Assembly (NCBI GenBank): GCA_965662895.1
Contig: CBFIJH010000004.1
Coordinates: 64,001 to 128,000 of the forward strand
DNA length: 64,000 nt
Direction: 5' to 3'
Source: Candidatus Poseidoniaceae archaeon
Lineage (GTDB): Archaea; Thermoplasmatota; Poseidoniia; Poseidoniales; Poseidoniaceae
Of the stretch, positions 10,206-56,668 are shown piece by piece. A program made the translations under genes and the position numbers. Below the pieces are notes generated by a model. That model was not told the DNA's origin. It made no database searches and worked only from the letters and a program-made list of their open reading frames with translations. Every line of letters starts with the position of its first letter. Within the stretch, counting starts at the first letter, position 1.

Positions 10206-11153
10206 TTACAGGCCAGGAGCGGCTTCACGCCATTCCTCTTCCTCGTCATCGGCATTGATGAAACGTCGACCGGCGACAGCAGCAGCCAAAGCCACCATGG
10301 AAAGTGCAGGAATGATTTCAAAGCCCGGAAGATAGACTCCACGAACATAGATTGTGATCATTTGTGATTCACGGTCACAGCCACCGTTCTTACAGGAGAA
10401 ATCCGACTCTGCGTAGAAGTCAAGCGTGTGGTACGCATCGCTCCAACCTTGTGTCTTTGGCGTGCGGACTTGAATTCGAACCTTCGCAGGAGCAACCATC
10501 GGCTCAACGTTGACCTTGCTGATTGGGATGTTGATGTTGAATCCTGCATCCTGAAGAGATTCACGGGAGTTTTCAGAGATTCCGACCTTCATGAAATCGA
10601 ATTGGTTTCCGAGGTTGTAAACTTTGAATTCAAAATCCTTGTCGGTCTTTGGCATCAGCTGAACGAACGGTTCGACCGCTTCGACTTGCAAAAGAGCGTA
10701 TTGTGTGATTGATACAATCATGTTTGCACCCGATGTTGCTTGGTTTGCAGGAGGAAGACCTTGTATTTCTTGGACACTGCCTTGGACGACAAGACTACGT
10801 GCTTGCATGGTCATGAATTGTTGTGCACGGACAACGACTTGGAAGTCTTCCTCACTGTTTGCCCCGACGTAAAGATCACCGGGCGCAGCGGCGGCAAGCC
10901 CGTCAGATGTAACAGAAAGGGCAACTTTTTCGATGTACGCCGTCGGGTTTGACGCCGTACAAGTCGTAAAGCCGACCAGTGTTGAACCAGGCTTAACATC
11001 GACCTTTATTTCTGCGGGCTGACACGTAATCGAAATCGCAGCAGTTGGTACTTGTGCCTGTGCAGGAACCGCAACGAGTAGCAAAGAAGCAAGGTAAATC
11101 ACAAGGACTGTAAAGGTACTCTTTCGTGTGGACATCGTGCTCACTAACTTCAT
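10206..11153 (-). CDS. Choice-of-anchor T-like surface protein with PGF-CTERM-type sorting signal
   Basis: Signal peptide ending AQA; C-terminal LPGFE + TM + GRR. Start may be the ATG near 11135 (MSTRK). Confidence 0.7.
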   Translation of the reverse strand: MKLVSTMSTRKSTFTVLVIYLASLLLVAVPAQAQVPTAAISITCQPAEIKVDVKPGSTLVGFTTCTASNPTAYIEKVALSVTSDGLAAAAPGDLYVGANSEEDFQVVVRAQQFMTMQARSLVVQGSVQEIQGLPPANQATSGANMIVSITQYALLQVEAVEPFVQLMPKTDKDFEFKVYNLGNQFDFMKVGISENSRESLQDAGFNINIPISKVNVEPMVAPAKVRIQVRTPKTQGWSDAYHTLDFYAESDFSCKNGGCDRESQMITIYVRGVYLPGFEIIPALSMVALAAAVAGRRFINADDEEEEWREAAPGL

Positions 11154-11213: not shown

Positions 11214-11287
11214 TGGGCCTGAAGGGATTTGAACCCTTGACCGCCCGGTTATGAGCCGGGTGCTCTAACCAACTAAGCTACAGGCCC
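11214..11287 (-). tRNA. tRNA with CAT anticodon, most likely tRNA-Ile2 (agmatidine-modified)
   Basis: Reverse complement GGGCCTGTAGCTTAGTTGGTTAGAGCACCCGGCTCATAACCGGGCGGTCAAGGGTTCAAATCCCTTCAGGCCCA folds as a cloverleaf; GGGCC acceptor stem and CGG-CTCATAA-CCG arm resemble archaeal Ile2. Confidence 0.9.
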
Positions 11288-11311: not shown

Positions 11312-12619
11312 TCATGAGTTTGCCGAATCAAACATTGCCAGAGAGGATTGGGAAGGTTTGGTTTTGGAACGTACCAATGCTTCGCATGCATCGCGAATTT
11401 GTTCGGGGACGAAAACAAGAATGCGTTCATCCGTTTGTGTTAGTGATCGGATGAGTGGAGAATGCTCTGCAGCATCACGGCCATCTTCGAGAATGATGCC
11501 TTGTTCATAAGGCATGTATCCACGCTTACGTATCGATGCCGTGATGAGGTCATGTTCCGCATCGAAGCCTTCCTTGCGAAGAACTTCAGCAACTTCATAT
11601 TTCACGACTTGAAACATCTCAGAGGTCAAGGATGAAATGCGCAGAGATTTGTGATAATCTCTTCGGGCTAGTAAGCGGGAAGCAAAACCGGACAACACTT
11701 GATCTTCATGGTTAGCAAAGCGTCCGATTGCAACTTTGATGTGCGAATCATGCAACGAGGCGTATTGCTCTGGAGTCAGCGATTGATTAGTTAGCATGTG
11801 CTGTATTTCTTCCTCGACCTCAAGTTGCCCAAGGGACACGAGTTCTTTTGCCCGAGAAAGCATCCGAACAAGGTAGGATTGCGTCAGCATGTTGACTTTG
11901 TGAAAGTAGACTTGATTGTACATGTGGTATCGGGTAACCAGGTAGGCCTCAATGGCCGGTAAGCCCCATGATTTAACGTACAGTCGGCCATCGTCGTTGA
12001 CGCGCAATGCCCTGATGACTCGGGCACTGTCAAACCCACCTATTTGTGCACCGGTATTGGCTTGGTCACGAATCATGTAATCCATGCGATCCACATCGAG
12101 CTGACTGCTAATAATTTCTTTGAGAAATGGAGCGATGGGTTCACCGTTGCATTCCAGTTGACCATCGAGAAGAGCAAAAAGACGTTGTTTACGTTCGACG
12201 CCGAGGACATCCTTGAGAACTTTCCCGATTTCGGAATCCTCGCTTTCAAGAAGAATCCTACCCCAGTGTTCATGAGAATGAAACGTCGCAAAAACCTCTG
12301 GTGTTTCCAAGAGGTGAGAATAGGGAGGGTGACCAATGTCGTGGAGAAGAGCACCAAGTTGTACAAGTTCTGCATCTGCATTGGATAAAAGACCCGGTTG
12401 GACTTCTTGAATCGAGGAAGTTAACTCACATGCGAGATGATATGCACCCAATGAGTGTGCGAAACGGGTGTGCGTAGCTGACGGGAAGACGAATTCGCAG
12501 GTCGAAAGTTGTTGGATGTTTCTTAATCGTTGAAACTCTTGGGTGTCAATGATGCGTGCGTGATGGGCCGGGACCAAGATGTCCCGATGAATTTCATCGC
12601 GAATCACACGGTCTCGCAT
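11312..12619 (-). CDS. HD-domain phosphohydrolase, SAMHD1/dNTP triphosphohydrolase-like
   Basis: IRDEIH, IIDTQEFQRLRNIQQL, ATHTRFAHSLG, ALLHDIGHPPYSH, SQLDVDRMDY, RYHMYNQVYFHK; start trimmed to ATG 12619. Confidence 0.9.
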   Translation of the reverse strand: MRDRVIRDEIHRDILVPAHHARIIDTQEFQRLRNIQQLSTCEFVFPSATHTRFAHSLGAYHLACELTSSIQEVQPGLLSNADAELVQLGALLHDIGHPPYSHLLETPEVFATFHSHEHWGRILLESEDSEIGKVLKDVLGVERKQRLFALLDGQLECNGEPIAPFLKEIISSQLDVDRMDYMIRDQANTGAQIGGFDSARVIRALRVNDDGRLYVKSWGLPAIEAYLVTRYHMYNQVYFHKVNMLTQSYLVRMLSRAKELVSLGQLEVEEEIQHMLTNQSLTPEQYASLHDSHIKVAIGRFANHEDQVLSGFASRLLARRDYHKSLRISSLTSEMFQVVKYEVAEVLRKEGFDAEHDLITASIRKRGYMPYEQGIILEDGRDAAEHSPLIRSLTQTDERILVFVPEQIRDACEALVRSKTKPSQSSLAMFDSANS

Positions 12620-12710
12620 AGTAAATGCTGTCAATGCATCGCATTTCAAGGCATCTCCTACCAACGAGGCCGAGGAAAAGGATATTCTCTCTAGAGGTTT
12701 ACGACGAATC

Positions 12711-14453
12711 ATGGCAGAAGGTCTCAAAGGCTTCCTTGCTCGACTGTCGACCGATGATCCCGAAACCAACGGTCCAAGATTATGGGTCATGTTTGCAATT
12801 TCCTTGTTTCTTGTTGCGACGCTCAACTGGTACGCAATGGTCCGGGAACCTTCCGTTGTCGACGTTGATGAGCTAACGGATTACGTCAATGAGGTCGTCA
12901 AGGTCGAAGGACAGCTTATCTCTTGGGTAGAAGATCCATACAATTCGGGCGACGACCGTCTCGACGCAATCATTGACGATGGCACTGGTGTCGTCGAACT
13001 TCGATGGTACCGTCCAGCGGAGCTGCCACCCATCGGCACGAATGTTACCGTCATTGGTGATGTCATCGAGTACGAAGGAAGGATGTGGCTTCAAGCGCTC
13101 GGTGCAGGAGCGATGAATTGGGACCAAGATGACATCCCAGATGCACCATTACTTTCAATTTCGGATGTTGCTCTCGAACCTGAGGCATATGCAGGTGAAG
13201 TGATTCAACTCACTGGGTTCCTTTCTGAATCAATTGCACCGGATGTGTCGTTCAACAGCGCATACCTCGGCGACCATCCTACCTACGGAAATTCAGAACA
13301 CCAGATGCACATGATCATGCATTCATCGACAGGTGAATGGATTGAATCAGGGTCGAAAGTCACCGTACAAGGAATCCTGTCTTACCAACAACGCGACCTT
13401 CGGTGGAGCATACACGTTCAAGGTCCTGAAATTCTTCTGGATCGAAATCATCCGGTTGAAATCCCATTGTTGGACTGGGCCGGCCAATCCGCATGGATGT
13501 ACCAATCTGGAAGTACCGTCGATGTCGCTGGTGTTCTTTCCATCGACGAGGGCGATTGGTGGCTAACCGGTTCTGCAGGCTCTCCGCTTTGTGTCTTGCC
13601 AAGTGACGATGATCGAGACAACGCTGAGCAATGGAGTGGACTTGCCATACAAATGCGAGGACGTTTGGTCTGGAATACGGCGATTTCTTCCTGGTGTTTG
13701 GATAAAGGTGGTTCAATGAACGAGGCATTAACTGCGACATCGAGCATCGATGACTTGTTGTTGCTTCTGAGCGCAAACCCGAGTGAAGCCCTTCAAGACT
13801 CGAACAAGCGGTATGTCGTTTCGGCCTACATGAAATACGCTCTGGAACCCAGTGTCGAAGACGAGGGCGCATACTTCGTCGATTCACCAGGCTACACACC
13901 GGGTTGGACGAGCATCGCCGTAACAATCCCGGGGCCAAGGTCTTCTTGGCTCGAAGCTGGACAGGAAATTGTCGCCAATGTTTCCGTTGCGTGGGATGAC
14001 GAAAACATGCGGGTAGAATTGCTTGTTCACGAATATTCAGAGGGACAAAAGGCCAATCCGATGAATCTTCTTTGGTCCGATGGTGCAACGAACTGGGGGT
14101 ACGACAAAAACAAGATTGTGCGAATCAATGGACTCGCTACAGAGGATAACGGAACGTGGTACCTTTCCGAGCCTGGCAGCGACAAGCGCATCCTCTTGCA
14201 GGCCGTGAACAATTGCATCGGATTGGACGAATTGCACGTTGGCACGGCGATGACATGGGAAGGTCGTCTGCGACAAGCAGAGGATGCAAATTCGTTGACA
14301 ATGGTCTACACATTAAACGACGCAGATGTCGATGATAACGACAATGATGGATTAAGCGACGCACTTGAATCAGCATTTGGTACAAGTTCCAACACGGAAG
14401 ATACGGATGGCGATGGTACGAGCGATCGTCAAGAATACATCGAACAATCCTAG
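12711..14453 (+). CDS. Membrane-anchored multi-OB-fold protein with C-terminal thrombospondin type-3-like Ca-binding repeats
   Basis: N-terminal TM; VVKVEG...IIDDGTGVVELRWY...IGTNVTVIGDVIEYEG is a classic OB pattern, with further repeats (GEVIQLTG, GSTVDVAG, NKIVRING); ends DNDNDGLSD...DTDGDGTSD. Confidence 0.75.
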   Translation: MAEGLKGFLARLSTDDPETNGPRLWVMFAISLFLVATLNWYAMVREPSVVDVDELTDYVNEVVKVEGQLISWVEDPYNSGDDRLDAIIDDGTGVVELRWYRPAELPPIGTNVTVIGDVIEYEGRMWLQALGAGAMNWDQDDIPDAPLLSISDVALEPEAYAGEVIQLTGFLSESIAPDVSFNSAYLGDHPTYGNSEHQMHMIMHSSTGEWIESGSKVTVQGILSYQQRDLRWSIHVQGPEILLDRNHPVEIPLLDWAGQSAWMYQSGSTVDVAGVLSIDEGDWWLTGSAGSPLCVLPSDDDRDNAEQWSGLAIQMRGRLVWNTAISSWCLDKGGSMNEALTATSSIDDLLLLLSANPSEALQDSNKRYVVSAYMKYALEPSVEDEGAYFVDSPGYTPGWTSIAVTIPGPRSSWLEAGQEIVANVSVAWDDENMRVELLVHEYSEGQKANPMNLLWSDGATNWGYDKNKIVRINGLATEDNGTWYLSEPGSDKRILLQAVNNCIGLDELHVGTAMTWEGRLRQAEDANSLTMVYTLNDADVDDNDNDGLSDALESAFGTSSNTEDTDGDGTSDRQEYIEQS

Positions 14454-14458
14454 GTGAT

Positions 14459-15964
14459 TTGATGATCGAAGCCTACTTCCATGAACTCTGGTGGCTCTTG
14501 GGCGCCTTGTTCTTTGGAGTCATGCTTGGTTCGCTCACAGGACTCATTCCAGGTTTTCACGTCAACAATGTTGCATTGATTCTCCTTGCTGTTTCTCCAG
14601 GATTGCTGGAATTGGGCATACCCCTATCAGCCGTCGCAGCGATTATTGTATCAACGGGAACCGTTCACACATTTTTGAATTACATTCCCTCTGCGCTCAT
14701 CGGCGCACCTGATGGAGATACAGCGTTATCGTTACTTCCAGGGCATCGGATGTTGCTTGCTGGTAATGCTGCACGTGGTGTTGCATGGTCAGCTCGAGGA
14801 TCCCAACTTGGTCTGTTTCTATCTTTGCCCCTTATCGTTGTTGCTCGAATTGCCTTCGGCCCTGAGCTCAATTGGTACGACGGACTTCGAGACTGGTTGC
14901 CCGTTATTCTTCTCGTGATATCCCTTCTGCTTCTCGCAACCGAAACCACCCGTCTTGATTGGCCGAAATGGGTACAAAAGGTAACGGGAAAGCGTCTCGG
15001 AAAGGACAGTCGGCTTGCTGGTTTCTTTGCTGCAACCGTCTTCTTCTTGCTTGCTGGATTGTACGGATGGGCTGTGTTCGAACTCCCGGTCGATAGCCCA
15101 GTAGGTATGCCATCGCCTTCCTTGTTGCTTCCGAGTTTAGCGGGTTTGTTTGGTATCGCGAACCTTCTCGACATCTATGCGACCACCAGCCATCTCCCTC
15201 CACAAAAAGAGAACTGGGATTTGCCCCCGGTTAAACCGCTCATTGCGCCGTGTTTCTGGTCAGCCGTTGCCGGTGCAAGTATGGGTGTATTGCCCGGTAT
15301 GACCGCATCCCAAGCAACCGTTCTCGTCATGGGTGGCCGCAATGTTGCGGCAAAGGTGCAAGGAAAGGAAGGATACGGTATGGACTGGGAAACCCGACGC
15401 TTAACGGAACTCAGCGATGAGGAATTGTTGGAAATTGCCGTTGCAGAAGCAGAGGATGGATACGAAGGTCCGCAAACGAAGCAAGATTTGGAAGTCATTG
15501 CGATTCTTTCAGCCGTAAACACAGCTGTCACAGTCATGGTCCTTGGATTCTTGTACATCATTGGTCGATCTCGTTCTGGTGCAACACTTGCCTTGAAAAT
15601 GATGTACCCGATTGAAACGTGGAACTCAACGCAGCCCACTGCCGACTTTGTGCGACTTCTCGCTGTAACGCTTGCAGCCGGAATCATGGCGATGCCGATC
15701 ATGAAAATTGTTGGGAAAGGCATGCTCAGGCTCCATGCTGCTATTCCTTTGCAATCAATGGTCATGGGCGTCATCATTTTCGTCACAGCATTGGTATGGC
15801 TTTCGACAGGATTCGTCGGCATTGGCGTCCTCATTGTCGGAACCATTCTCGGACTTATGCCTCCACGTATCGGGATTCGACGAAGCCACGGAATGGGAAT
15901 TATCCTCGTTCCCATTATGATTTACACCTTCGCACAGATGGCAGACAGCTTCGGTTTCATCTGA
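14459..15964 (+). CDS. TctA/DUF112-family (tripartite tricarboxylate transporter permease-like) membrane protein
   Basis: GSLTGLIPGFHVNN, HTFLNYIPSALIGAPD..TALSLLPGHRMLLAG, LPSLAGLFGIANL, GVLPG, GRSRSG motifs of the archaeal DUF112 family. Confidence 0.88.
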   Translation: MMIEAYFHELWWLLGALFFGVMLGSLTGLIPGFHVNNVALILLAVSPGLLELGIPLSAVAAIIVSTGTVHTFLNYIPSALIGAPDGDTALSLLPGHRMLLAGNAARGVAWSARGSQLGLFLSLPLIVVARIAFGPELNWYDGLRDWLPVILLVISLLLLATETTRLDWPKWVQKVTGKRLGKDSRLAGFFAATVFFLLAGLYGWAVFELPVDSPVGMPSPSLLLPSLAGLFGIANLLDIYATTSHLPPQKENWDLPPVKPLIAPCFWSAVAGASMGVLPGMTASQATVLVMGGRNVAAKVQGKEGYGMDWETRRLTELSDEELLEIAVAEAEDGYEGPQTKQDLEVIAILSAVNTAVTVMVLGFLYIIGRSRSGATLALKMMYPIETWNSTQPTADFVRLLAVTLAAGIMAMPIMKIVGKGMLRLHAAIPLQSMVMGVIIFVTALVWLSTGFVGIGVLIVGTILGLMPPRIGIRRSHGMGIILVPIMIYTFAQMADSFGFI

Positions 15965-16031
15965 GAGAATGAGGATTCTCCGTACCAAAAGATATGAGGG
16001 GGAAGGCGCTGGATGGAATCAGTGATGCCTT

Positions 16032-19000
16032 ATGCGTTTTGAAACAATTTTTCTCATCAGCCTGATGTTGTTGGTACCACTTACCCCATTGGTGGAACCT
16101 GCAGAAGCAACCTCGGCTCGCGCTCAGCCTTGCGGTGGTTCAGTTTGCATCAACGAAGTCATGCCGAATCCGAACGGGTACGATGATGCAGCATGGCCAA
16201 ATGGTGAGTGGCTCGAATTGTACAACGGTGGAACATCGTCTGTCGATGTACGAAATTGGTATTTCTCAAACAAGGCTTCGAGAATACTGACGCTGAATTC
16301 GGCTTCCATCGTTGGTTACAATGCAAGCAATCCATCAACATACACAATCGCTCCAGGCGATTACATGATTGTAGCGCGAAACGCCTCAACCAATTTCTAT
16401 GTTGCGAACTCGAATGATTTCATGACGCTGTACGATTCATCAAACGGTTGGGTTGATGAAGCGACATGGAATTCAACTTCAAGTGGAGTAAGTTTGGAGG
16501 AAGATCCATCAAATGCCTACAACGATTGGATACCTACGTCCAATCCGACCCCCGGTTCTGTCAACACTGGAGGAGGCGGAGGTACCGGTGGACCAACGTA
16601 TGCACAAAGCGATGTCATCATCAACGAAGTCATGGCAGATCCATGGCCAAGTTATGACAATGCTACCTGGCCTAGTGGTGAATGGGTTGAATTGTACAAC
16701 AACGGAACCTCGGCCATCGACCTAGCCGGATACTGGTTGCAAGATGTTGCTGGAAATATGATCACGCTCAATGAAAATCACCTGATTGGCGCATCGACTG
16801 ATGCCTCTTCCTTCCTCATCCATCCTCAAGAGACACGAATCGTTGCGGTGAACTCCACCACGAACAGCGGCGTCTTGAACAACGGACAAGAAACGTTGCG
16901 GTTGTATTTGGCAAACGGAAGCATCGGCCATGAGGTTCTGTGGAGTTCGAATCAACCCGGATTTTCACTCGAAGCCTCATCGACTGGAACAATGTGGCAA
17001 TACTCGACCTACCCGACTCCAAACGCCACGAACGCACCGAAAATCGAACAAATCACCTCAGCAGGCGATGTCGTCTTGAACGAAATTTTTCCAGTCAGCA
17101 CAATGGATGGAACCGCTGCGCCTGATGGTGAATGGGTCGAATTCTACAATGGTGGTATTGTTGATGTTGATCTGTATGGATGGTCAATCATTGATGGTAT
17201 GGGGAACGTTACCTTCCTCGATCCCGGTTCAATCGTTGTCAACAGTTCTCAAGGGAGCACGATGATTCACGCCGATGAGCGACGACTCGTTGAATTCACA
17301 GGCGACACGCGTCTCTGGGACAATTACAACCATCTCGTGATTCGAGATTCAACTGGAGCGATTGTCGATATGGGACATTACACGACCAATTACGGACCAG
17401 ACATCTCGTTGTTGCGAGGACAAAATTACCATGACCCGTGGACGCCATCGATTACGCCTTCACCGGGACAACCTGAACCCACACCGACGCCGACCACTGG
17501 TGATGTCAAAATCACGGAAGTTCTACCTGACGCTGTGGGAAGTGATTCGGCGTCCTACCCGAACGGTGAGTGGATTGAAATTCGAAACATGGGCACTGAA
17601 GAAGTCGATGTTGCCGGTTGGAGGTTCTCAGCCGAAAATCGAAACCTGATTCTTCATCAATACAACATGCCATCAAAATCGGACACTGTCCTCCAACCCG
17701 GAGAAACCGCACTAATCGCTCTCAATGGCACCTCCCAATTCTATCTCAAACATACAACACCTGACCAAATTTTCCTTAACGATGGCAACGGAGTGGTCGT
17801 CCACAGCGCTCAGTGGACACACACGCTCGAAGGTGGCTCTCTCATCAACAACACTGAATCTCATGCGGGTGCAGGGCCCAATGGAGCCAATGCACCCTCT
17901 TCATCAACAACTTGGGGTGTAGACGATTGGATCAACAGCGCTTGGGCAACTCCGGGAGAAGAAAACCCGAAATGGCCTGAATACACTGAAAGCGAGAATG
18001 TTTTGGTAACCGAGATCGCCACATCCTGTGACCTTCCGACATTCCAGCCAGCAGCTGATTGGATTGAGGTATACAATGACGGAGAATCCGAAGTCAATCT
18101 CAGTCGCTGGATTCTCCAAACCGACTACAGTTCCAATCCTCTCATGGGGCGTCAATTCATTGATGCAAGCATGGTTTGGGATTCAACATCCACGGATGTC
18201 CTCTTGCAACCTATGGAACGAATGGTTGTCGAACTTGAACACGATATTTTCGGACCTGATTTGGACGATGTCAGCGCGATGAATCTCCTCAATCCTGACG
18301 GTGACCTCGTTCTCACGATAGCACCCCCTGTTTCGCATCTGAGTACAACTTGCGCGACGTATGGATACAACTCGACCAATGCTGAATGGCTGGAGTTCCT
18401 GTGGCCAACTCCGGGCTCGCCTGAGCCAGATGCGACAATGATGGCTTCGCTTGATGACATCAAATTTAGTTCCATTATGTGGGACGGTGTCTCCTCGATA
18501 TCAACCGAAATGGAATTTTTCGAATTAACGAACATCGGGACGGATACAGCCATTCTCAATGGTTGGTCAATACGTCGAATTGCTTCAGATGGCACATCGT
18601 TTGAATCGCAAATAACCAACCTCGAAATCGATGCTACCTCCTCTGTCAAGTTGTCAAATGACGTTACAGCCCTCGAGTTGTTTGAAGGCGGAGAGATTCT
18701 TGACATGAGTGCTGCCATGGAAAACCCAATCTATCTTCTCGACAGTGGAATGGCACTGCAACTGATTCATCCAACTGGAGTCGTTGCTGATACGATTGTC
18801 TACAAGAATGGGCCCGTCGAAAGTGAAGGTTGGAGTGGCGTGGCCCTCTCTGAACCTGTGAGTGGTATTGACAACCTCATCCTCTACCGAGGAGATGGTT
18901 GTGGGATCTTAACAGATACCAACCAATCCACCGATTGGCACCAACGGTGGGGACGGTTGGGTGCGAGCGATTTCTGTGCCGAAAGTGGATTCGATGATGC

Positions 19001-20921
19001 AACAACGGTGACGCCGCTAATCGCTCCCGAACACGGGCTGATGGACATTCTGAATTGGATTGATGGCGCACAATCCTCCCTTCACGTCCACCTTTACATC
19101 CTGCAATCGAGCGAAATCGCTCAAGCATTGGTCGATGCGAAGAATCGTGGAGTCGATGTCGTTGTTGTTCTCAATGAACCTGAGGATTGGTGGAATTCCA
19201 ACGATAAACAAGCACAGCAGGCGTATGCGCATTCGTTGAAACAATCGGGCATTGATGTTCATTGGTTTGGCGGCTCTGGTGACGACCCCTATCTCTACCT
19301 CCATTCAAAAGTCGCAGTGAGGGACGATTCTTCCGTGTGGATTGGTTCCGGGAACTGGAAACCATCCTCCTTGCCGTACGACGGAGATCGAGGCAATCGT
19401 GATTGGGGACTTCTGATTGAGAGCGTCCAACTTGCCAACATCGTTCGATCGAATATGGCGTACGACGAGACGTCCAATTACGTCCTCGATGTATCGTCCA
19501 CTGCCCCGACGAATTCCTATGTCATTCCCGAGGCACAAGAGATCAATCAAGCAACAGCGCAAGCCCTTACTGGGACGTTTAGCGGCCAGTTGCTGACGTG
19601 CCCGGATGACTGTGTTGAAGGTTTAACCGATCTGATTGTATCCGCTGATGACGAGATCTTGCTCTCATTGCAATACCTCGATTTGGATTGGAAATGGGGC
19701 TGGGGCGAGAATCCTTTGATTTCTGCCCTTGAACAAGCTGCAATCGATGGTGTTGCTATACGTCTCATCATCAACGGGGCTTATCTCGACGAGGACATTC
19801 AGGATGTTGTCGATCAAATCAACAACGATTGGAACATCACCAATGGTTGGGATGCATCAGCCGTCATCATGAGCGAAGATGACGATGTCATGAAGTTGCA
19901 CAACAAAGGAGCCATTGTTGATGGTGAGTCCGTTCTCATTTCAAGCATCAACTGGGGCGATTCAGCGATGGTTCGAAATCGTGAAATGGGCCTCATTGTT
20001 ACCTCATCCGAAGTCGCTGCTCCGTTCCTTGAATCGTGGTACGCTGATTGGAACCGTTTGGACAATGTCACGGATACGGACAACGATGGGATGCCAGACA
20101 TCTTTGAAGTGAACAATGGATTGAACCGGACTGTTTCGGTCCACAATGGTGTTTTGGAAGCGGACATGGACAACGATAACGATGGATTGTCCAATCTTGA
20201 TGAGTACATGCTCGGAGGTCATCCACTGAATCCTGATACGGACGGTGATTGTATTCCTGATGCTGTTGAAGTAAGTTGGGCACAAACAACCGCTCTTGAT
20301 CCAAGCGTTGAAGACGTTTCGCCAGAAGATGCAATCAATCGCGCAGATGCTGATGGTGACGGTACAAATGAGGCGGATGCATTGGGTTGTGATCTAGGTG
20401 GAATTGACCCTATTGATACAAACGACGACCAGACAAACGATACGAGCACAGATGATGACAACGATGGCGTGTTGGATGTGAATGATGAATGTCCAGATAC
20501 GCCTGCAAACACACCGACCGATGTGAGTGGTTGTTCTTCTGAACAACGCAATCAGAAAGCAGGTGATGCGGCTGGTGAGGCTGACGAAGGATTCGGAGAA
20601 AATTTCATGCTGATTCTAATGCTTGGAGGCCTACTCTTACTTATCGGGGCTGTGTACGGCATTGTTCAATCTCGCAAAGAAAATGAGGCAACTAAGGATT
20701 GGGTCACCGAACAACATATTGACGACGTTGTTGGTACGGAAGCTCAATGGGAGCAGCCTGTTCTTGATGGAAGAGGTGAAGAAACAGATTCAGGACTTGC
20801 GAAGGAACTTGATCGCTTCCCCGGTTGGACCGAGGAGATGCTGCAGCAATACTTGGACCATGGCTGGACGCTGGACCAGTTGGAGGAATACTACCAACAA
20901 CAGGTCGCAGAACAGGGATAA
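16032..20921 (+). CDS. Large surface enzyme: multiple lamin-tail domains + phospholipase D (2x HKD) + TSP3-like repeats + TM anchor
   Basis: Repeated (I/L)NEV(M/F)...GEW(L/V)ELYN.G...VD...W lamin-tail motifs; HSKVAVRD...GSGNW (19302-19325) and HNKGAIVD...SSINW (19899-19922); DTDNDGMPD-type repeats; C-terminal TM. Confidence 0.9.
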   Translation: MRFETIFLISLMLLVPLTPLVEPAEATSARAQPCGGSVCINEVMPNPNGYDDAAWPNGEWLELYNGGTSSVDVRNWYFSNKASRILTLNSASIVGYNASNPSTYTIAPGDYMIVARNASTNFYVANSNDFMTLYDSSNGWVDEATWNSTSSGVSLEEDPSNAYNDWIPTSNPTPGSVNTGGGGGTGGPTYAQSDVIINEVMADPWPSYDNATWPSGEWVELYNNGTSAIDLAGYWLQDVAGNMITLNENHLIGASTDASSFLIHPQETRIVAVNSTTNSGVLNNGQETLRLYLANGSIGHEVLWSSNQPGFSLEASSTGTMWQYSTYPTPNATNAPKIEQITSAGDVVLNEIFPVSTMDGTAAPDGEWVEFYNGGIVDVDLYGWSIIDGMGNVTFLDPGSIVVNSSQGSTMIHADERRLVEFTGDTRLWDNYNHLVIRDSTGAIVDMGHYTTNYGPDISLLRGQNYHDPWTPSITPSPGQPEPTPTPTTGDVKITEVLPDAVGSDSASYPNGEWIEIRNMGTEEVDVAGWRFSAENRNLILHQYNMPSKSDTVLQPGETALIALNGTSQFYLKHTTPDQIFLNDGNGVVVHSAQWTHTLEGGSLINNTESHAGAGPNGANAPSSSTTWGVDDWINSAWATPGEENPKWPEYTESENVLVTEIATSCDLPTFQPAADWIEVYNDGESEVNLSRWILQTDYSSNPLMGRQFIDASMVWDSTSTDVLLQPMERMVVELEHDIFGPDLDDVSAMNLLNPDGDLVLTIAPPVSHLSTTCATYGYNSTNAEWLEFLWPTPGSPEPDATMMASLDDIKFSSIMWDGVSSISTEMEFFELTNIGTDTAILNGWSIRRIASDGTSFESQITNLEIDATSSVKLSNDVTALELFEGGEILDMSAAMENPIYLLDSGMALQLIHPTGVVADTIVYKNGPVESEGWSGVALSEPVSGIDNLILYRGDGCGILTDTNQSTDWHQRWGRLGASDFCAESGFDDATTVTPLIAPEHGLMDILNWIDGAQSSLHVHLYILQSSEIAQALVDAKNRGVDVVVVLNEPEDWWNSNDKQAQQAYAHSLKQSGIDVHWFGGSGDDPYLYLHSKVAVRDDSSVWIGSGNWKPSSLPYDGDRGNRDWGLLIESVQLANIVRSNMAYDETSNYVLDVSSTAPTNSYVIPEAQEINQATAQALTGTFSGQLLTCPDDCVEGLTDLIVSADDEILLSLQYLDLDWKWGWGENPLISALEQAAIDGVAIRLIINGAYLDEDIQDVVDQINNDWNITNGWDASAVIMSEDDDVMKLHNKGAIVDGESVLISSINWGDSAMVRNREMGLIVTSSEVAAPFLESWYADWNRLDNVTDTDNDGMPDIFEVNNGLNRTVSVHNGVLEADMDNDNDGLSNLDEYMLGGHPLNPDTDGDCIPDAVEVSWAQTTALDPSVEDVSPEDAINRADADGDGTNEADALGCDLGGIDPIDTNDDQTNDTSTDDDNDGVLDVNDECPDTPANTPTDVSGCSSEQRNQKAGDAAGEADEGFGENFMLILMLGGLLLLIGAVYGIVQSRKENEATKDWVTEQHIDDVVGTEAQWEQPVLDGRGEETDSGLAKELDRFPGWTEEMLQQYLDHGWTLDQLEEYYQQQVAEQG

Positions 20922-20961
20922 GTCGCGTAACCTTGACAAAGGACCACACCCTAGGTATTCC

Positions 20962-21702
20962 ATGGCCTACAACTCGTCGAACCCTGTCTTCCAACCAGCC
21001 TTTTGGAATTCGATTCAAGGCAATGACCGAATGACCCTTGAAGGGACACTGCAAAAAACCGGCATTTTGTTTGGTATGGCAACAATCAGTGCTGTCGGAT
21101 CGATTGCACTCGGATTCATCATGCCGTCCCTCCTTTATCCACTAATGATCTTGGGTATGTTTGGCACGATTGGCATGGGGGTATTCTTGATGTTTGCTCG
21201 CCCGGCTGAACCAACAGGATTTGTGCTTGCTTACGCAACGCTCGAAGGTCTGTTTATCGGACCTCTTACGCTCGTGTTCGAGGTGTTCTATCCAGGTATA
21301 GCGATTCAGGCGGGGCTTGCAACCTTCGGGGTTGTTGCTTCTATGCTCACCATCTACTCTCTAGGTATTCTACGTCCAACACCTACATTCAACAAGATTG
21401 TCTTCACCCTAACCGGTTCAATCATGCTGATGTACATGATTAACATATTCCTCTACTTCCTGACTCCCTGGACGATACCCTTCCTTCACTCCTCGGGACC
21501 GATTGGAATTGGGATTAGTGTATTCATCATTATCGTTGCGTCAATGATGTTGATTTCCAACTTCGGCATGATTCATGCTGGCGTTCGAATGGGGGCACCG
21601 AAGAAGCAAGAATGGTGGGGCGCTTTCGGAATCATGGTGACGGTAATTTGGTTGTATTTCGAAATGCTTCGCTTGATTGCCAAACTCCGCGACTCAAGGT
21701 GA
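20962..21702 (+). CDS. Bax inhibitor-1/YccA family membrane protein
   Basis: SSNPVF, RMTLEGTLQKT, YATLEGLFIG, YPGIAIQA, GAPKKQEWWGAFGIMVTVIWLYFEMLRL; start trimmed to ATG 20962. Confidence 0.9.
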   Translation: MAYNSSNPVFQPAFWNSIQGNDRMTLEGTLQKTGILFGMATISAVGSIALGFIMPSLLYPLMILGMFGTIGMGVFLMFARPAEPTGFVLAYATLEGLFIGPLTLVFEVFYPGIAIQAGLATFGVVASMLTIYSLGILRPTPTFNKIVFTLTGSIMLMYMINIFLYFLTPWTIPFLHSSGPIGIGISVFIIIVASMMLISNFGMIHAGVRMGAPKKQEWWGAFGIMVTVIWLYFEMLRLIAKLRDSR

Positions 21703-21706
21703 TACG

Positions 21707-22669
21707 TTGGCACGTCCTCTGCCCATCGCTGATCTCAATGATTTTCTATCCGGTGATGAACAACGAATTCAAGCGTTCATCCAAACGGTCGGAGATTCGC
21801 TTGCAGACATTGGGTTCTTTGCCCTGACCAATCACGGTATTGATCTTGAATTAATCGAGGCCACCTACGATGTGGCTGAATCATTCTTTTTGCTTGAGGA
21901 ATCTGTGAAGCATCAATATGCGAAACCAGAAATTTCTCACCAACGTGGTTACACTGCTTTTGGTGTTGAACATGCAAAAGACAATCCTGCTCCAGACCTC
22001 AAAGAATTCTGGCAGACTGGAAGAGGTCAGCAAGGAAGTGAAACAGATACAAAATATCCGATGAATGTCTGGCCGAACCGGCACATCCCCGGTTTCGAGG
22101 AAAAAGTTGACAACTTGTACAACCGAATGGAGGAAATCTCCAATCAATTGCTTTCCGCTTGCAGCATCTACCTTGGCAAAGCGTCCACTTGGCTTCCTTC
22201 AATGGCTGAAAGAGGGAACACAATCATGCGAATAATCCACTATCCGCCTCTTGATTCGAACACGCCTGAAGGTGCGGTTCGCTCAGCGGCTCACGAGGAC
22301 ATCAATTTCATCACCTTATTGATGACTGCAACTGCTGCAGGCCTTCAGGTCATGGATCATGATGGGACATGGATTGATGTTGTAGGAAATCATGAACAAA
22401 TCATTGTTGATTCTGGAGATATGATTCAGAATTTGACCAACGGTTTGTTCAAGTCGACGACGCATCGGGTTGTTAACCCTGGCGACCCAACACAACGACG
22501 TTTCTCGATGCCCATGTTTGTTCACCCACGAAACGAGATTGATCTGACGCCACTACCCGAATTTATCGACCGAACCAGTGGTTCGGCAGATTTCCCATCA
22601 ATTACTGCTGGTGAGTATCTTCATCAACGACTTGCTGAAATTGGATTGGTATCAATTGACGAGGGTTGA
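21707..22669 (+). CDS. Isopenicillin N synthase-family 2OG-Fe(II) dioxygenase
   Basis: IGFFALTNHGI, HYPP, AAHEDINFITLL (HxD), STTHRVV, RFSMPMF (RxS); TTG start at 21707 preceded by AGGTGA. Confidence 0.9.
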   Translation: MARPLPIADLNDFLSGDEQRIQAFIQTVGDSLADIGFFALTNHGIDLELIEATYDVAESFFLLEESVKHQYAKPEISHQRGYTAFGVEHAKDNPAPDLKEFWQTGRGQQGSETDTKYPMNVWPNRHIPGFEEKVDNLYNRMEEISNQLLSACSIYLGKASTWLPSMAERGNTIMRIIHYPPLDSNTPEGAVRSAAHEDINFITLLMTATAAGLQVMDHDGTWIDVVGNHEQIIVDSGDMIQNLTNGLFKSTTHRVVNPGDPTQRRFSMPMFVHPRNEIDLTPLPEFIDRTSGSADFPSITAGEYLHQRLAEIGLVSIDEG

Positions 22670-22674
22670 AGTCA

Positions 22675-23946
22675 ATGCATATTCCAAATTTGCTTGCCAA
22701 AAAACGGGACGGGCATGGGCTCGAGCAACGAGAAATCGAGTGGTTTATCCAACATCTTCATGAGATTCCGAATGAACAAATTGGTGCATTTTTGATGGCC
22801 TGCCAAATCAATGGTTTGAATGCTGAGGAAACAACATACCTCACCAAGGCCATGCTCGACCAAGGAAAACGCCTTTCGAATCGAGACGGGGCTATCGACA
22901 AACACTCAACAGGTGGCGTTGGTGATAAAATGAGCCTCATCCTTGCTCCTGCATTGCGTGCCTGTGGAGCAATCGTGCCAATGTTGGCGGGAAGAGGATT
23001 GGCGCATACTGGAGGGACCATCGACAAACTGGAGGCGATTCCAGGCTTCAACACGGGACTAAGCATTGAACAAATGGAACACAATCCGTGTTTTATTTCG
23101 CGCCAAACCGATGAGATTGCTCCAACCGATTCCATCCTTTACGCAATTCGTGATGTTACAGCAACGGTTCCGTGTATTGGTTTGATCACTGCATCCATTC
23201 TTTCAAAGAAGGCTGCGGAAGGAATCCAAGCCCTCGTGCTCGATGTCAAATATGGCCGAGCTGCATTTATGCAACATTCAGATGATGCAAGAAAACTTGC
23301 AAAATCGATGATTCGTGTTGGCACTGAACTCGGAATTGAAGTTACGGCTCAACTTACAGAAATGGATCATCCAATCGGCAACATGCTTGGAAACAGTCAT
23401 GAAATTGTTGAATCGATTCAGTGTCTCAAAGGCCAAGGACCTGTTGATACCATGGAATTGGTGCATGCTCAAGCAAATGCATTGGGTTTTGAAGTTTCAG
23501 AAGTCATCGCAAACGGTTCAGCGCTTGAAGAATTCAGGCGAATGCTGGAACGTCAAGATGTTGACGCCCTTACCGCTCAGAAACTCATCGATGAGCCTTG
23601 GAGCGTGTTGGAGCGTGCACCCCAGCAATACGCAATACTCTCCGAAAAATCCGGATATGTAGCGGATATGGATGCCCTAGCAATCGGTCAAGTTCTTTGC
23701 GAAGCAGGCGCTGGTCGCTCGATGCAAGGTGATGACATCGACCATGGAGTAGGCATTGAAATTCATCATCGCATCGGTTCAAAGATCGAAGAAGATGATG
23801 TTATTCTAACGCTCGATGGCCCATTTGGCCTCGATGTTCACCTCCTTCAGCGATTGAAAGATTCGATTACAATCTCCGATTATCAAGTTGGTGTTGCTTC
23901 AAGGATTCTTGAAAGTCTAACAATTGACGATGGCTCAACGACTTGA
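22675..23946 (+). CDS. deoA: Thymidine / pyrimidine-nucleoside phosphorylase
   Basis: KKRDG, DKHSTGGVGDK, MLAGRGLAHTGGTIDKLEAIPGF, LYAIRDVTATV, ASILSKK, VLDVKYGRAAFM. Confidence 0.92.
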   Translation: MHIPNLLAKKRDGHGLEQREIEWFIQHLHEIPNEQIGAFLMACQINGLNAEETTYLTKAMLDQGKRLSNRDGAIDKHSTGGVGDKMSLILAPALRACGAIVPMLAGRGLAHTGGTIDKLEAIPGFNTGLSIEQMEHNPCFISRQTDEIAPTDSILYAIRDVTATVPCIGLITASILSKKAAEGIQALVLDVKYGRAAFMQHSDDARKLAKSMIRVGTELGIEVTAQLTEMDHPIGNMLGNSHEIVESIQCLKGQGPVDTMELVHAQANALGFEVSEVIANGSALEEFRRMLERQDVDALTAQKLIDEPWSVLERAPQQYAILSEKSGYVADMDALAIGQVLCEAGAGRSMQGDDIDHGVGIEIHHRIGSKIEEDDVILTLDGPFGLDVHLLQRLKDSITISDYQVGVASRILESLTIDDGSTT

Positions 23947-23989
23947 ACCGATGGAAGCCGTCATAAAGGAGATGTTGCTGGCCAAACTC

Positions 23990-24062
23990 GCCGATTTAGC
24001 TTAGTTGGTGGAGCGTGGGACTGTTAATCCCAAGGTCGTGGGTTCGAGCCCCACAATCGGCG
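23990..24062 (+). tRNA. tRNA-Asn(GTT)
   Basis: GCCGATTTAGCTTAGTTGGTGGAGCGTGGGACTGTTAATCCCAAGGTCGTGGGTTCGAGCCCCACAATCGGCG; cloverleaf with GTT anticodon and G discriminator. Confidence 0.95.
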
Positions 24063-24095
24063 TAAATTGAACTCCAACCATAACGAGGTGAAAAC

Positions 24096-24367: not shown

Positions 24368-25315
24368 TTATTCCCACTCGATGGTTCCGGGTGGTTTGTG
24401 TGTAATATCGTACACGACTCGATTGACAGCACCCTTGACCGTGTTGGTAATACGCGTACTAATTTTCTGGAGAATATGATGTGGTATCTCTGAGTACCGT
24501 GCCGACATTCCATCCATACTTCGGACTGCTCGAACAACAATGGTTTCGCCATAGGCACGGACGTCACCATGAACACCAACGGATCGAACGGGTAACAGTG
24601 CAGCAAAATATTGCCATGGCAATTCCATTTCACCTGCTTCAGCTCCTGCTTCAAATTCTTCCTCAACAATGGCACATGCCTCTCGAACCACTTCAACACG
24701 TTCTGGCGTGAGATCACCCAATGTTCGGACAGCCAGACCTGGTCCAGGGAATGGTTGGCGCTCTGCTACGACAATATCGAGTTCTCGGGCAAGTTCTCGA
24801 ACTTCGTCTTTGTACAATTCACGAAGAGGTTCAACGACTTCAAGCGTCATATCTTCGGGCAATCCACCAACGTTGTGATGAGATTTTATCGTGTCGCGAA
24901 CACCACCCCCAGATTCAATCCAGTCAGGAGCAATTGTACCTTGAACGAGGTATTTTGCACCGCATTTTTTCTGTTCGTCTTCAAAGATACGAATGAACAA
25001 TTCACCAATGACTTTCCGCTTTTGCTCAGGTTCCGTAACGCCTTTCAATGCCTCAAAGTATCGATCTGCAGCCTTCACAGTGATCAGATTGATGCCCTGC
25101 TCGGAAAGCATCGCTTCAATTTCCTCAGTTTCATTTTTTCTCATGAAGCCAGTATCAACATACACACAGTGAAGGAGATCCCCGACTGCTTTACTGGCAA
25201 GAACTGCGGCAACTGTCGAGTCAACACCGCCTGAGCATGCAATGATTGCAACATCATCGATTGTTGCTTTCAATTGCTGAATCGATTCCTCGATAAATTC
25301 AGGCGCATCAAACAT
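24368..25315 (-). CDS. guaAB: GMP synthase subunit B (ATP pyrophosphatase)
   Basis: ACSGGVDSTVAA, VDTGFMRK, PEQKRKVIG, QGTIAPDWIES, IKSHHNVGGLP, RQPFPGPGLAVR, KPPGTIEWE; no GATase domain. Confidence 0.96.
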   Translation of the reverse strand: MFDAPEFIEESIQQLKATIDDVAIIACSGGVDSTVAAVLASKAVGDLLHCVYVDTGFMRKNETEEIEAMLSEQGINLITVKAADRYFEALKGVTEPEQKRKVIGELFIRIFEDEQKKCGAKYLVQGTIAPDWIESGGGVRDTIKSHHNVGGLPEDMTLEVVEPLRELYKDEVRELARELDIVVAERQPFPGPGLAVRTLGDLTPERVEVVREACAIVEEEFEAGAEAGEMELPWQYFAALLPVRSVGVHGDVRAYGETIVVRAVRSMDGMSARYSEIPHHILQKISTRITNTVKGAVNRVVYDITHKPPGTIEWE

Positions 25316-25316
25316 C

Positions 25317-25796
25317 TCAAGCCCTGCCGTTGACTTCTCGATCCATTTGCAGTACGCGCTCTACTTGATCGAGTTTGTCTTGAACGAGGCGTTGTGCCAT
25401 TTCGTCATCGACGAGTGCCAGCATTTGGACAGCAAGATGTCCTGCATTGTCACCACGGTCGACACCGACGGTTGCAGCCGGAACGCCAGGTGGTAGCTGG
25501 ACGATGGAAAGGAGCGAATCAAACGGTACACGGCCTCCACACGGAACACCGATAACGGGCTTGGTGGTTAAAGCAGCGACTGCTCCGGGAAGAGCGGCTG
25601 CGAGGCCTGCCATTGCGATGAAGACTTTGCATCCATCCCCCTCTGCTTTGTGGATGATTTCCTCAACGAATTTAGGAGAGCGGTGGGCAGATGCTACGCG
25701 CAGTTGGTAATTTACTCCGAATTTGTCAAGCACTTTTGTGCACTTTTCAGCAATCGGCATGTCAGACTTCGAACCCAGTAAGATAGATACATCCAT
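25317..25796 (-). CDS. purE: N5-CAIR mutase / AIR carboxylase
   Basis: ILLGSKSD, VASAHRSP, AGLAAALPG, PVIGVP, SLLSIVQLPPGVPAATV. Confidence 0.95.
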   Translation of the reverse strand: MDVSILLGSKSDMPIAEKCTKVLDKFGVNYQLRVASAHRSPKFVEEIIHKAEGDGCKVFIAMAGLAAALPGAVAALTTKPVIGVPCGGRVPFDSLLSIVQLPPGVPAATVGVDRGDNAGHLAVQMLALVDDEMAQRLVQDKLDQVERVLQMDREVNGRA

Positions 25797-25834
25797 GACC
25801 ATTTCCCATCGCGGGTAGTTCTTTTAGATGACCC

Positions 25835-26527
25835 TCACTCTTCTTCGAACAAAAATCTCTCAAGATCAAAGATTTTCTCGGAGAAAACATCGAGATGCAG
25901 CCAACAACCCTCTTCATCGAAAGCACAATACATGACCGCAAGTTGTTGTTTTGTTCGAGAAATCGCCATGAGGCCATTGTTTGGTTTCGCATTCAAAATG
26001 TTCCAATGGCCCAATCTTGAAGGGTTGAGTTTCAGATATCGGGAAGGATTCCACTCTCTGCGGAACTGAACGCCGCGCCCAGCCGAGGTTTGATTTGCGA
26101 CGCGATAGGTTGCAACAAAGAGACATGCGCACAAACCGAGTGGAATCCACAAAGAGACTTCAATCAGAAATGCTGAGCATAGCGACAGCAAGAGCAAGAG
26201 AACACTAAGGTGTACTCCTCGATGCAAAACAAGTACACGACGTTGGGAAAATGTTGAGAATAGTGCCAAACCGAGTAGAGCGTTGGTAACAAGAATAAAC
26301 CATTGAACGAGGAAAATGTACTTCCCAGAAACGAGCATGAGAATCGGAAAGGCCATGGTCAATAGAGATCCAGCCATGGTAAACAATGGAAGAATCATGA
26401 CGGCCCTCTCTTCAGAAGGATACCAACCGTCAACAAACAGTCCTACCATGACCTTTGGAAAACACTCGAGTTCTTGTTTCTGTTGGGTATCGGCGATGAA
26501 GTTAAATCGAAAAGACGATTTGTTCAC
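25835..26527 (-). CDS. Hypothetical membrane protein (start uncertain, possibly ATG 26449)
   Basis: About 4 TM segments followed by a soluble C-terminus; codirectional with purE. Confidence 0.65.
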   Translation of the reverse strand: MNKSSFRFNFIADTQQKQELECFPKVMVGLFVDGWYPSEERAVMILPLFTMAGSLLTMAFPILMLVSGKYIFLVQWFILVTNALLGLALFSTFSQRRVLVLHRGVHLSVLLLLLSLCSAFLIEVSLWIPLGLCACLFVATYRVANQTSAGRGVQFRREWNPSRYLKLNPSRLGHWNILNAKPNNGLMAISRTKQQLAVMYCAFDEEGCWLHLDVFSEKIFDLERFLFEEE

Positions 26528-26530
26528 ACA

Positions 26531-50147: not shown

Positions 50148-50192
50148 GGCTGTACCGTAGAAATGATAACTTGAAAGACTTTGCAAAATTTG

Positions 50193-51446: not shown

Positions 51447-51491
51447 GGCGACCGACAAAGAACTCATAACCTGACAAGAATAGCATAATCC

Positions 51492-56664: not shown

Positions 56665-56668
56665 AATC

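Follow-up and report, generated by a model that had tools for sequence, protein, structure and literature searches.

What is the function of a compact block of genes that lies between two tRNA genes in the genome of a marine archaeon? The block is part of a stretch of 64,000 nucleotides (hereafter the window; contig CBFIJH010000004.1, positions 64,001 to 128,000, or G000:C4:64001-128000 in our numbering) from a Candidatus Poseidoniaceae archaeon of the order Poseidoniales, whose genome assembly of 1.86 Mb is 92% complete. Archaea of Marine Group II are abundant but have yet to be cultured, and dissolved DNA is a large marine pool of organic phosphorus and nitrogen. A first-pass annotation had listed six co-directional open reading frames (ORFs) and one divergent ORF between tRNA-Met and tRNA-Asn, an inventory borne out by ORF analysis, ARAGORN and Pfam/NCBIfam searches (Table 1), and had suggested that the block could be a complete route for binding, cutting, importing and catabolising DNA. 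We retain that reading for a core of four genes, which encode an anchored OB-fold protein of 580 amino acids (p580), a TctA-family permease, a 1629-residue surface protein combining lamin-tail domains (LTDs) with a phospholipase D (PLD) module (LTD-PLD), and a thymidine phosphorylase (TP). The nuclease-like character of the PLD module and the tie between TP and a 2-oxoglutarate (2OG) oxygenase are retained as well, while the YccA-like membrane protein, the HD-domain deoxynucleoside triphosphate (dNTP) hydrolase and complete catabolism are given up. On balance, we favour the view that the core is a Poseidoniales surface module that captures, cuts and imports extracellular DNA, joined to cytoplasmic processing of pyrimidine deoxynucleosides, and that Marine Group II archaea probably capture and use dissolved DNA.

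To describe conservation we label the families of the order f1 (the window's family), f2 and f3, the sister family f4, and genera g3 to g11. When the window proteins were compared by tblastn with 24 loci from relatives, the order p580, TctA, LTD-PLD, TP was found to be kept in f1, f2 and f3 at 30-57% identity, whereas the flanking genes at 24368-28404 were present only in the same-genus loci L015-L017, which alone among the loci of that genus extend so far. Because the core order spans three families while the flanking genes go no farther than the genus or family, the arrangement is more than chance. Across a sample of 61 genomes from the order, the PLD module was detected in 57, TP in 56 and both in 56. 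Of these 56 genomes, 53 carry the two genes on one contig and strand, no more than about 4 kb apart; the three exceptions are G105 and G032, where the genes are at contig edges, and G328, which is discussed below. None of the four core genes was found in G030 (g6), G035, G264 and G309 (g10), genomes that are 89-94% complete. A p580 profile matched 40 of 41 genomes from f1, 18 of 22 from f3 and 0 of 8 from f4. In the synteny comparison, one of the checks that the first-pass annotation had proposed, the OB-fold protein, TctA, LTD-PLD and TP therefore came out as an order-wide unit, present or missing together.

The strongest support for DNA uptake comes from the first two genes of the core, which by analogy of architecture appear to match a pair genetically needed for DNA uptake in methanogens (PMC10133366). 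The available text of Fonseca et al. 2023 (PMC10133366) describes an M. maripaludis operon encoding MMJJ_13020, an OB-fold protein with one transmembrane (TM) helix, and MMJJ_13030, which is TctA-like and has 11 TM helices; in-frame deletions of the two genes abolish natural transformation and complementation restores it. The same source reports that a TctA homolog is essential for transformation in M. thermophilus too, and that MMJJ_16440, a membrane-(lipid-)anchored secreted thermonuclease, is also essential for transformation (PMC10133366). No SNase-family nuclease was found in the window's genome, so the role of an anchored nuclease would otherwise be vacant there; the genome contains four T2SSE-type ATPase loci.

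In the window's genome PF01970 occurs at a single locus, and in the loci examined TctA always adjoins p580; the family also has matches in the Methanocaldococcus jannaschii control. A classic bacterial TctABC transporter was considered and rejected, as no match to TctC (PF03401) was found in the window's genome and the best TctB match (PF07331), on another contig, scored 20.2 bits, under the cut-off of 29.1. Beyond the order, a p580 profile built from Poseidoniales proteins alone gave weak matches in five other Thermoplasmatota genomes, and in all five the matching protein was a TM+OB ORF of 212-467 amino acids directly upstream of a TctA gene. We then scanned species-representative public genomes with a TctA alignment and took the best 80 loci, 74 of which include upstream DNA and none of which belongs to Methanococcales. 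At 49 of the 74, an abutting co-directional ORF matches a TM-OB hidden Markov model (E<1e-3), and the loci with such a pair among the best 80 include Methanosarcinales, Hadarchaeota and Hydrothermarchaeales. Since three of the short proteins were included in building this model, hhalign served as an independent check: the Poseidoniales p580 alignment matched eight out-of-phylum partners at a probability of 96.6% (E 6.7e-10) over 169 columns covering OB1 and OB2. These sequence comparisons indicate that p580 is homologous to short TM+OB partners of TctA-like genes across archaea.

Contact between the two proteins was also assessed by structure prediction. A complex of TctA with p580 residues 1-250 scored 0.46 against 0.00 for the best of three controls, with runs agreeing on at least 83% of contacts and a partner pLDDT (predicted local distance difference test) of at least 72. 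In the benchmark for this score, 58 of the 80 solved complexes attained the mark, as did 2 of the 110 mismatched pairs; scores of 0.60 or lower comprised only 7 of the 80 solved complexes and both of the passing mismatches. The prediction lends weak support to a TctA-p580 contact.

Two further arrangements were seen around TctA-like genes elsewhere. Of the 25 loci without a TM-OB ORF, 11 (within L081-L095), all from other Thermoplasmata, have a guaA-like ORF directly upstream of the TctA-like gene, which may point to an ancient association of such genes with nucleotide metabolism. At L030:708-4825 and L031:7824-12320, from one other Thermoplasmatota family, the short TM-OB/TctA pair stands beside ORFs resembling Cdc48-type ATPases and Orc1/Cdc6 (N-termini, judged by eye).

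By sequence family p580 itself is nearly blank. Pfam assigned nothing except a sub-threshold TSP3 repeat at the C-terminus, in an acidic tail of the calcium-binding type; comparison with the PDB by sequence yielded nothing meaningful; and its relatives in a collection of 5.8 billion proteins are all unnamed or 'hypothetical' and all from Poseidoniales. Hydropathy analysis identified one hydrophobic helix (residues 26-44), and an AlphaFold2 model computed with 23 orthologs (pLDDT 78.7) consists of one N-terminal helix followed by five five-stranded barrels. The best Foldseek matches of the model are the multi-OB DNA binders p204 HIN, RADX, CST, RPA and POT1 (E 1e-11 to 1e-6). VIA-align paired residues 46-145 with the anticodon-binding OB domain of AspRS at Z 14.5 and an rmsd of 1.8 over 87 residues, and with a domain of archaeal RPA at Z 13.1 and an rmsd of 2.1 over 88 residues. 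The description of p580 as a multi-OB-fold anchored protein was thus upheld by structure prediction, where sequence families gave no support, and we propose p580 as the surface DNA-binding partner of the permease.

The third protein, LTD-PLD, is predicted from hydropathy to carry an N-terminal signal peptide (hydrophobic residues 3-21) and a C-terminal TM anchor (residues 1527-1545) followed by a cytoplasmic tail of about 84 residues; it also contains acidic repeats of the TSP3 type. Orthologs were recovered from 41 of 41 relatives (E<=0.001), and G030 and G035 gave only weak matches to the C-terminal repeat region. Within the PLD module, each of 14 orthologs compared has H135/K137/D142 and H334/K336/D341 and, in both halves, the asparagine of the downstream GSxN/SxN motif, which are the features that place a protein in the HKD/PLD superfamily; 13 of the 14 also share an unchanged 'TCPDDC' motif between the halves. 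Searched against the PDB as a single sequence, the module matched Nuc, Zucchini/MitoPLD and NucT best; as a profile of the 14 orthologs it matched Nuc (2.9e-15), Zucchini (2.3e-14), the phospholipase 7e0m (6e-12) and NucT (1.4e-11). Foldseek searches with an AlphaFold2 model of the module (pLDDT 87.1) ranked the single-stranded DNA (ssDNA) exonucleases PLD3/PLD4 first (8e-21), ahead of 7e0m (9e-20) and PLD1/2 (about 1e-18). By sequence and by predicted fold, the module resembles nucleases most closely, by narrow margins, with phospholipases trailing at E-values one to two orders of magnitude higher; this agrees with the DNA-cutting role first suggested for it. In bacteria, LTDs accompany cell-envelope nucleases, for example ExeM/Xds of Shewanella and Vibrio, according to the accessible part of PMC6085458.

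Two features of this protein family were noted separately. Both f2 genomes (L023, that is G027:C13, and G025:C31/C58) encode two LTD-PLD paralogs, one of which alone stands in the p580-TctA-TP context. In addition, the tail of the window protein (residues ~1546-1629, window 20667-20918), '...PGWTEEMLQQYLDHGWTLDQLEEYYQQ...', is found again at the C-terminal end of further giant ORFs (~1975 amino acids) in many genomes of the order, including the window's own (G000:C3:28719-29033), and appears to be a tail module that surface proteins have in common.

The last core gene encodes a phosphorylase with Glycos_trans_3N, Glycos_transf_3 and PYNP_C domains, for which two further NCBIfam models scored below their cut-offs (TIGR02644, 399.1 against 409.05; AMP phosphorylase, 178 against 535). 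The 2OG oxygenase is less widespread, being present in 34 of the 61 genomes (f1, plus g3 and g11 of f3), and in all 34 it lies directly beside TP. Its nearest characterized relative in the PDB is thymine dioxygenase 5c3p (113 bits, 1.5e-31), ranked third behind two uncharacterized bacterial proteins (187 and 143 bits), with the next families at about 98 bits; the HxD...H and RxS motifs can be read in the sequence as HED, THR and RRFS. We regard the protein as a candidate thymine-dioxygenase-like enzyme that is translationally coupled to TP.

Domain content, predicted folds, gene order, joint absence and the homology of p580 to other archaeal TctA partners are the observations on which the following scheme is built. 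After export, the 1629-residue enzyme would stay attached to the cell through its C-terminal TM helix, with the LTD array displaying a Nuc/PLD3-like double-HKD phosphodiesterase that cuts DNA. Anchored by its N-terminal helix, p580 would hold ssDNA or DNA ends beside the membrane with its five OB folds, and the TctA-like permease, translationally coupled to p580, would move DNA or its fragments inward, as has been proposed for the Methanococcus pair. Inside the cell TP would split deoxynucleosides derived from the imported DNA, and in the window's family the 2OG oxygenase may oxidise the thymine released. DNA as the substrate, direct transport by TctA and the fate of the products are the parts of the scheme that we infer. 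A bolder formulation, possible but put forward tentatively, is that Poseidoniales import DNA through an archaeal counterpart of ComEA/ComEC/EndA, in which a five-OB 'rail', a TctA-like channel and a tethered HKD nuclease, which degrades or trims DNA on the cell surface, are followed by conversion of thymidine to reusable pyrimidine by TP and the thymine-dioxygenase-like enzyme; such a counterpart would be built from unrelated parts.

A number of points count against the DNA-uptake reading. The case for Poseidoniales is made from sequence comparison and predicted structures. For the methanogens, direct DNA transport by the TctA-like protein is the authors' hypothesis in the available text (PMC10133366), and the link from p580/TctA to MMJJ_13020/13030 is an analogy drawn through shared architecture, Pfam family and the text of that paper rather than through an alignment. 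The ectodomain of p580 is very acidic (isoelectric point (pI) 4.05, with 4-7 K+R against 12-23 D+E per OB domain), which is unusual for a DNA binder; for context, the median pI of the ORFs in the window is 4.98 and the short TM-OB homologs have values of 4.5-5.7. The preference of the PLD module for nucleases over phospholipases is narrow, with Foldseek values of 8e-21 and 9e-20 and a phospholipase among the top four profile matches. Genes linked to lipids are inserted between TctA and LTD-PLD in some relatives: in six small f3 genomes a protein of 900-950 residues with a partial match to the CD36 family (PF01130, E ~1e-9), and in one f2 genome a thiolase. The CD36-like protein matched nothing in the PDB by sequence, and a protein atlas holds several archaeal 'CD36 family' clusters. 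In G328 the four core genes are distributed over three contigs (p580-TctA on C1, PLD on C17, TP on C11), and this dispersal appears to be genuine. That four genomes lack all four genes together is weaker evidence than it appears, because one deletion can remove neighboring genes and related genomes do not count as independent samples; it represents at most two events.

The downstream end of the pathway adds to these points. Thymidine kinase (PF00265) was found in 0 of the 61 genomes of the order, in a search that was positive for 7 of 14 control genomes, and DeoC in 0 of 30 genomes of f1, so that neither enzyme accounts for the use of the TP products, thymine and deoxyribose-1-phosphate. Thymidine salvage through thymidine kinase and, in the window's family, deoxyribose catabolism through DeoC were accordingly rejected as destinations for the products of TP, and the complete catabolic route of the first-pass annotation did not hold up. 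The f2 genomes do have DeoC, as do 26 of 29 genomes of f3, some without the cluster among them. The thymine-dioxygenase-like neighbor is the only hint as to the fate of the products.

Among the alternatives to DNA import, the one that survives best, although we consider it unlikely, is scavenging of phosphorus and nucleosides, in which the tethered PLD enzyme (with PhoX where it occurs) digests dissolved DNA, RNA or other phosphodiesters outside the cell to free phosphate and nucleosides or nucleotides, p580 acts as a tethered substrate-binding protein, TctA imports a small anionic product and TP processes the nucleosides taken up. It is in keeping with the TctA family (PF01970) being a secondary transporter of small anions, carboxylates in bacteria, and with nucleosides being the substrates of TP. 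Moreover, the orthologs of genera g5, g7 and g8 contain a PhoX alkaline-phosphatase domain as a fusion between LTDs and PLD module, and the window's genome has a separate PhoX-like ORF of 821 amino acids (G000:C1:195360-196385); the fusion, which counts for the DNA-uptake reading too, fits a stepwise breakdown of phosphodiesters. Bacterial 'DNA-degradation loci', which include a protein with LTD, OB and nuclease regions, follow a similar logic in the accessible text of PMC8289736. On the other hand, the sole genetic data on archaeal TM-OB/TctA-like pairs, as given in the available text of PMC10133366, concern whole transforming DNA, and neither TctC nor a credible TctB was found in the genome. 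A five-OB array would also be odd for binding a mononucleotide, and the TM-OB/TctA pair is widespread without an adjoining nuclease or PhoX.

Distinctly unlikely is a second possibility, that there is no single system and that the order of independent genes (a pair for DNA uptake or another purpose, an unrelated surface hydrolase and ordinary pyrimidine salvage) has simply been inherited. Both the dispersal of the four genes over three contigs in G328 and the tolerance of BaxI, thiolase and CD36-like genes inside the cluster speak for it. Against this, the core order survives in three families where its surroundings do not, 53 of 56 genomes keep PLD next to TP in frames that overlap or almost touch, and the four genes are missing together in four genomes.

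We hold it very unlikely that the cluster scavenges phospholipids or other non-nucleic phosphodiesters, with LTD-PLD as a true phospholipase D acting on plankton membrane debris, the lipid-linked neighbors processing the products and the OB protein binding glycans or another ligand. OB folds are able to bind oligosaccharides, the fold and profile searches also match phospholipases (7e0m, PLD1/2 and Streptomyces PLD), and the CD36-like gene of the six small f3 genomes and the f2 thiolase lie between TctA and LTD-PLD. However, the nearest relatives by sequence (Nuc, Zucchini, NucT) and by fold (PLD3/4) are all nucleases, and the constant 3' partner across the order is TP rather than a lipid enzyme. 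The CD36-like gene is on another contig in the window's genome and the thiolase comes from a single locus, while bacterial LTDs go with cell-envelope nucleases in the part of PMC6085458 available. Finally, an anti-phage defence island made of a DISARM-like DrmC nuclease and a dNTP-depleting dGTPase, for which PADLOC/NCBIfam DrmC-like matches of the PLD halves (75-79 bits) and a partial dGTPase match of the HD protein speak, was rejected as next to inconceivable, since the DrmC match reaches 79 bits against an NCBIfam cut-off of 133, none of the seven proteins matched another DISARM component such as DrmA, DrmB, a methyltransferase or DrmD/E, the signal peptide, extracellular array and TM anchor of the PLD enzyme put it outside the cell, and the HD gene is missing from many lineages that have the cluster.

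Two genes of the block are neighbors of the module rather than parts of it. The HD protein has the features of a dNTP triphosphohydrolase, namely the HD domain with a C-terminal region and similarity to solved dNTPases (EF1143-type 2o6i, 3.2e-45; SAMHD1, ~1e-25), although all NCBIfam dGTPase models scored under their cut-offs. Its ORF overlaps p580 only when the first TTG start is used, and because relatives align from about residue 60-72, M70 (12619) is the likely start. The gene divergently adjoins p580 in f1 (28 of 29 sampled genomes and the window's genome) and in f2; of the f3 genomes, 9 of 29 have it, at a distance of 5-6 kb or on another contig, and it was not found in g5, g7 and g8, three genera that keep the cluster. 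The YccA-like protein, BaxI, is encoded in 59 of the 61 genomes; f1 alone has it within the cluster, and genomes without the cluster still carry it. The first-pass annotation had counted both among the components; the HD hydrolase was removed on account of its restricted adjacency, and BaxI as a housekeeping gene that lies outside the cluster in two families.

Within the block the genes are closely spaced, with gaps of 5 bp between p580 and TctA, 67 bp between TctA and LTD-PLD, 40 bp between LTD-PLD and BaxI and 4 bp between BaxI and the oxygenase, and the oxygenase and TP frames overlap by 4 bp. Coordinates are collected in Table 1, together with those of the CD36-like and PhoX-fused ORFs in relatives.

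Table 1. Coordinates of the features discussed; positions without a prefix refer to the window.
Feature	Position	Strand	Remarks
tRNA-Met (CAT)	11214..11287	-	left block boundary; ARAGORN
HD dNTP triphosphohydrolase-like gene	11312..12826	-	Pfam HD + HD_assoc_2; divergent from p580; likely start M70 = 12619
p580, 580 aa	12711..14453	+	TM helix aa 26-44, five OB barrels (predicted), TSP3 tail
TctA-family permease	14459..15964	+	PF01970, 154.9 bits (cut-off 28.9)
LTD-PLD surface protein, 1629 aa	16032..20921	+	LTD x6 (238.7 bits), PLDc_2 x2 (125.4 bits)
PLD catalytic module, aa 957-1356	18900..20099	+	two HxK(x)4D motifs
HKD motif 1, aa 1091-1098	19302-19325	+	HxK(x)4D
HKD motif 2, aa 1290-1297	19899-19922	+	HxK(x)4D
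BaxI_1 / YccA-like membrane protein	20962..21702	+	PF12811, 207 bits; open frame from 20623, likely start ATG 20962
2OG/Fe(II) oxygenase	21707..22669	+	DIOX_N + 2OG-FeII_Oxy; open frame from 21677, likely start 21707
Thymidine / pyrimidine-nucleoside phosphorylase (TP)	22666..23946	+	NF004490, 405 bits (cut-off 269); last gene of unit
tRNA-Asn (GTT)	23989..24063	+	right block boundary; ARAGORN
CD36-like ORF	L011:13364-16213	-	
CD36-like ORF	L012:5921-8674	+	
CD36-like ORF	G000:C21:1574-4225	-	window's genome, other contig
PhoX-fused LTD-PLD ortholog	L011:8661-13256	-	
PhoX-fused LTD-PLD ortholog	L019:6637-11196	-	
PhoX-fused LTD-PLD ortholog	L021:8805-13409	-	
PhoX-fused LTD-PLD ortholog	L022:7727-12307	+	

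Outside the tRNA boundaries, the window encodes at 10206-11153(-) a 315-residue surface protein of the 'choice-of-anchor T' kind (NF041740, 294 bits) that ends in a weak sorting tail resembling Heimdall-CTERM, and this gene adjoins the cluster in f1, in f2 and in several genomes of f3. On the other side, a gene for the ATP-pyrophosphatase subunit of GMP synthase (GuaA) flanks the cluster at 24368-25315(-). Farther along, at 45678-60534, lies the alpha-glucan locus that the first-pass annotation had mentioned, comprising a 1516-residue GH57 protein with a glucodextranase-type C-terminal module, a GH77 4-alpha-glucanotransferase, a glycogen phosphorylase-like gene, a GH13 amylase with a carbohydrate-binding module and an ABC transporter that includes an 873-residue fusion of binding protein and permease.

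If the DNA-uptake reading is correct, it would give Marine Group II archaea a defined role in the turnover of dissolved DNA and a route for gene transfer, and would provide concrete proteins for biochemistry. The TM-OB/TctA-like pair for DNA uptake, for which the evidence has so far been genetic and confined to methanogens, would extend to another phylum, where its genes would stand in physical linkage with those for its nuclease and for nucleoside metabolism downstream; this linkage is an argument that the TctA-like protein does handle nucleic acid. Should the more tentative ComEA/ComEC/EndA-counterpart view also hold, this would be the first pyrimidine pathway of TP and thymine dioxygenase outside fungi, and very abundant ocean archaea would be direct consumers, and possibly recombiners, of dissolved DNA. 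Judged from the accessible parts of the papers, three elements are already in print: the TM-OB/TctA-like pair (PMC10133366), DNA-degradation loci (PMC8289736) and LTD nucleases (PMC6085458). What appears to be new is the combination of this pair with an LTD-HKD enzyme, with TP and with an oxygenase in Poseidoniales, which was not found in print: a literature search found no publication linking Poseidoniales to lamin tail or TctA, and a search for Marine Group II, extracellular DNA and nuclease found nothing on these genes, as judged from the listing of results.

How, then, does the locus compare with known systems? With the available description of MMJJ_13020/13030 it shares a co-directional arrangement in which an N-terminal single-TM OB protein precedes a PF01970 permease and, as in Methanococcus, TctB/TctC partners are missing and the parts list contains a membrane-tethered extracellular enzyme of nuclease type. 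It differs in that p580 is predicted to have five OB folds, whereas the partners examined here in other archaea have one or two, and in that the candidate nuclease, an LTD protein with a double-HKD PLD module, is encoded in the same cluster, while that of Methanococcus is a thermonuclease. TP, and sometimes the 2OG oxygenase, is attached in Poseidoniales.

The PLD module has the HxK(x)4D motifs in common with the HKD nucleases Nuc (1byr), NucT (6ehi), Zucchini/MitoPLD (4ggj) and PLD3/PLD4 (8v06, 8v08), and its layout of two HKD motifs in a single chain is like that of PLD3/4; however, identity over the fold is only ~14-18%, and the module is set in a 1629-residue protein with six LTDs. The oxygenase, in turn, resembles the fungal thymine-7-hydroxylase of thymidine salvage (5c3p) in combining DIOX_N with 2OG-FeII_Oxy, and it adjoins a thymine-releasing enzyme, but 5c3p is only its third PDB match and the separation from other families is modest.

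Two bacterial systems come closest in overall logic. ExeM/Xds, as far as described in the accessible text of PMC6085458, likewise have an N-terminal signal peptide and combine LTD and OB-type nucleic-acid-binding regions with an envelope nuclease; their catalytic domain is EEP, which LTD-PLD lacks, using PLDc_2 in its place, and ExeM is a single protein of 871 residues with one LTD as compared with six here. The 'DNA-degradation loci' of Candidatus Izemoplasmatales, read as serving nutritional DNA foraging (Wasmund et al. 2021, PMC8289736), similarly co-locate extracellular nuclease(s), phosphohydrolases and transporters in the part of the paper available, but they are bacterial, encode ABC and phosphate transporters instead of TctA, and use other nuclease families. 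In Poseidoniales, by comparison, the OB, LTD and nuclease functions are divided over two proteins.

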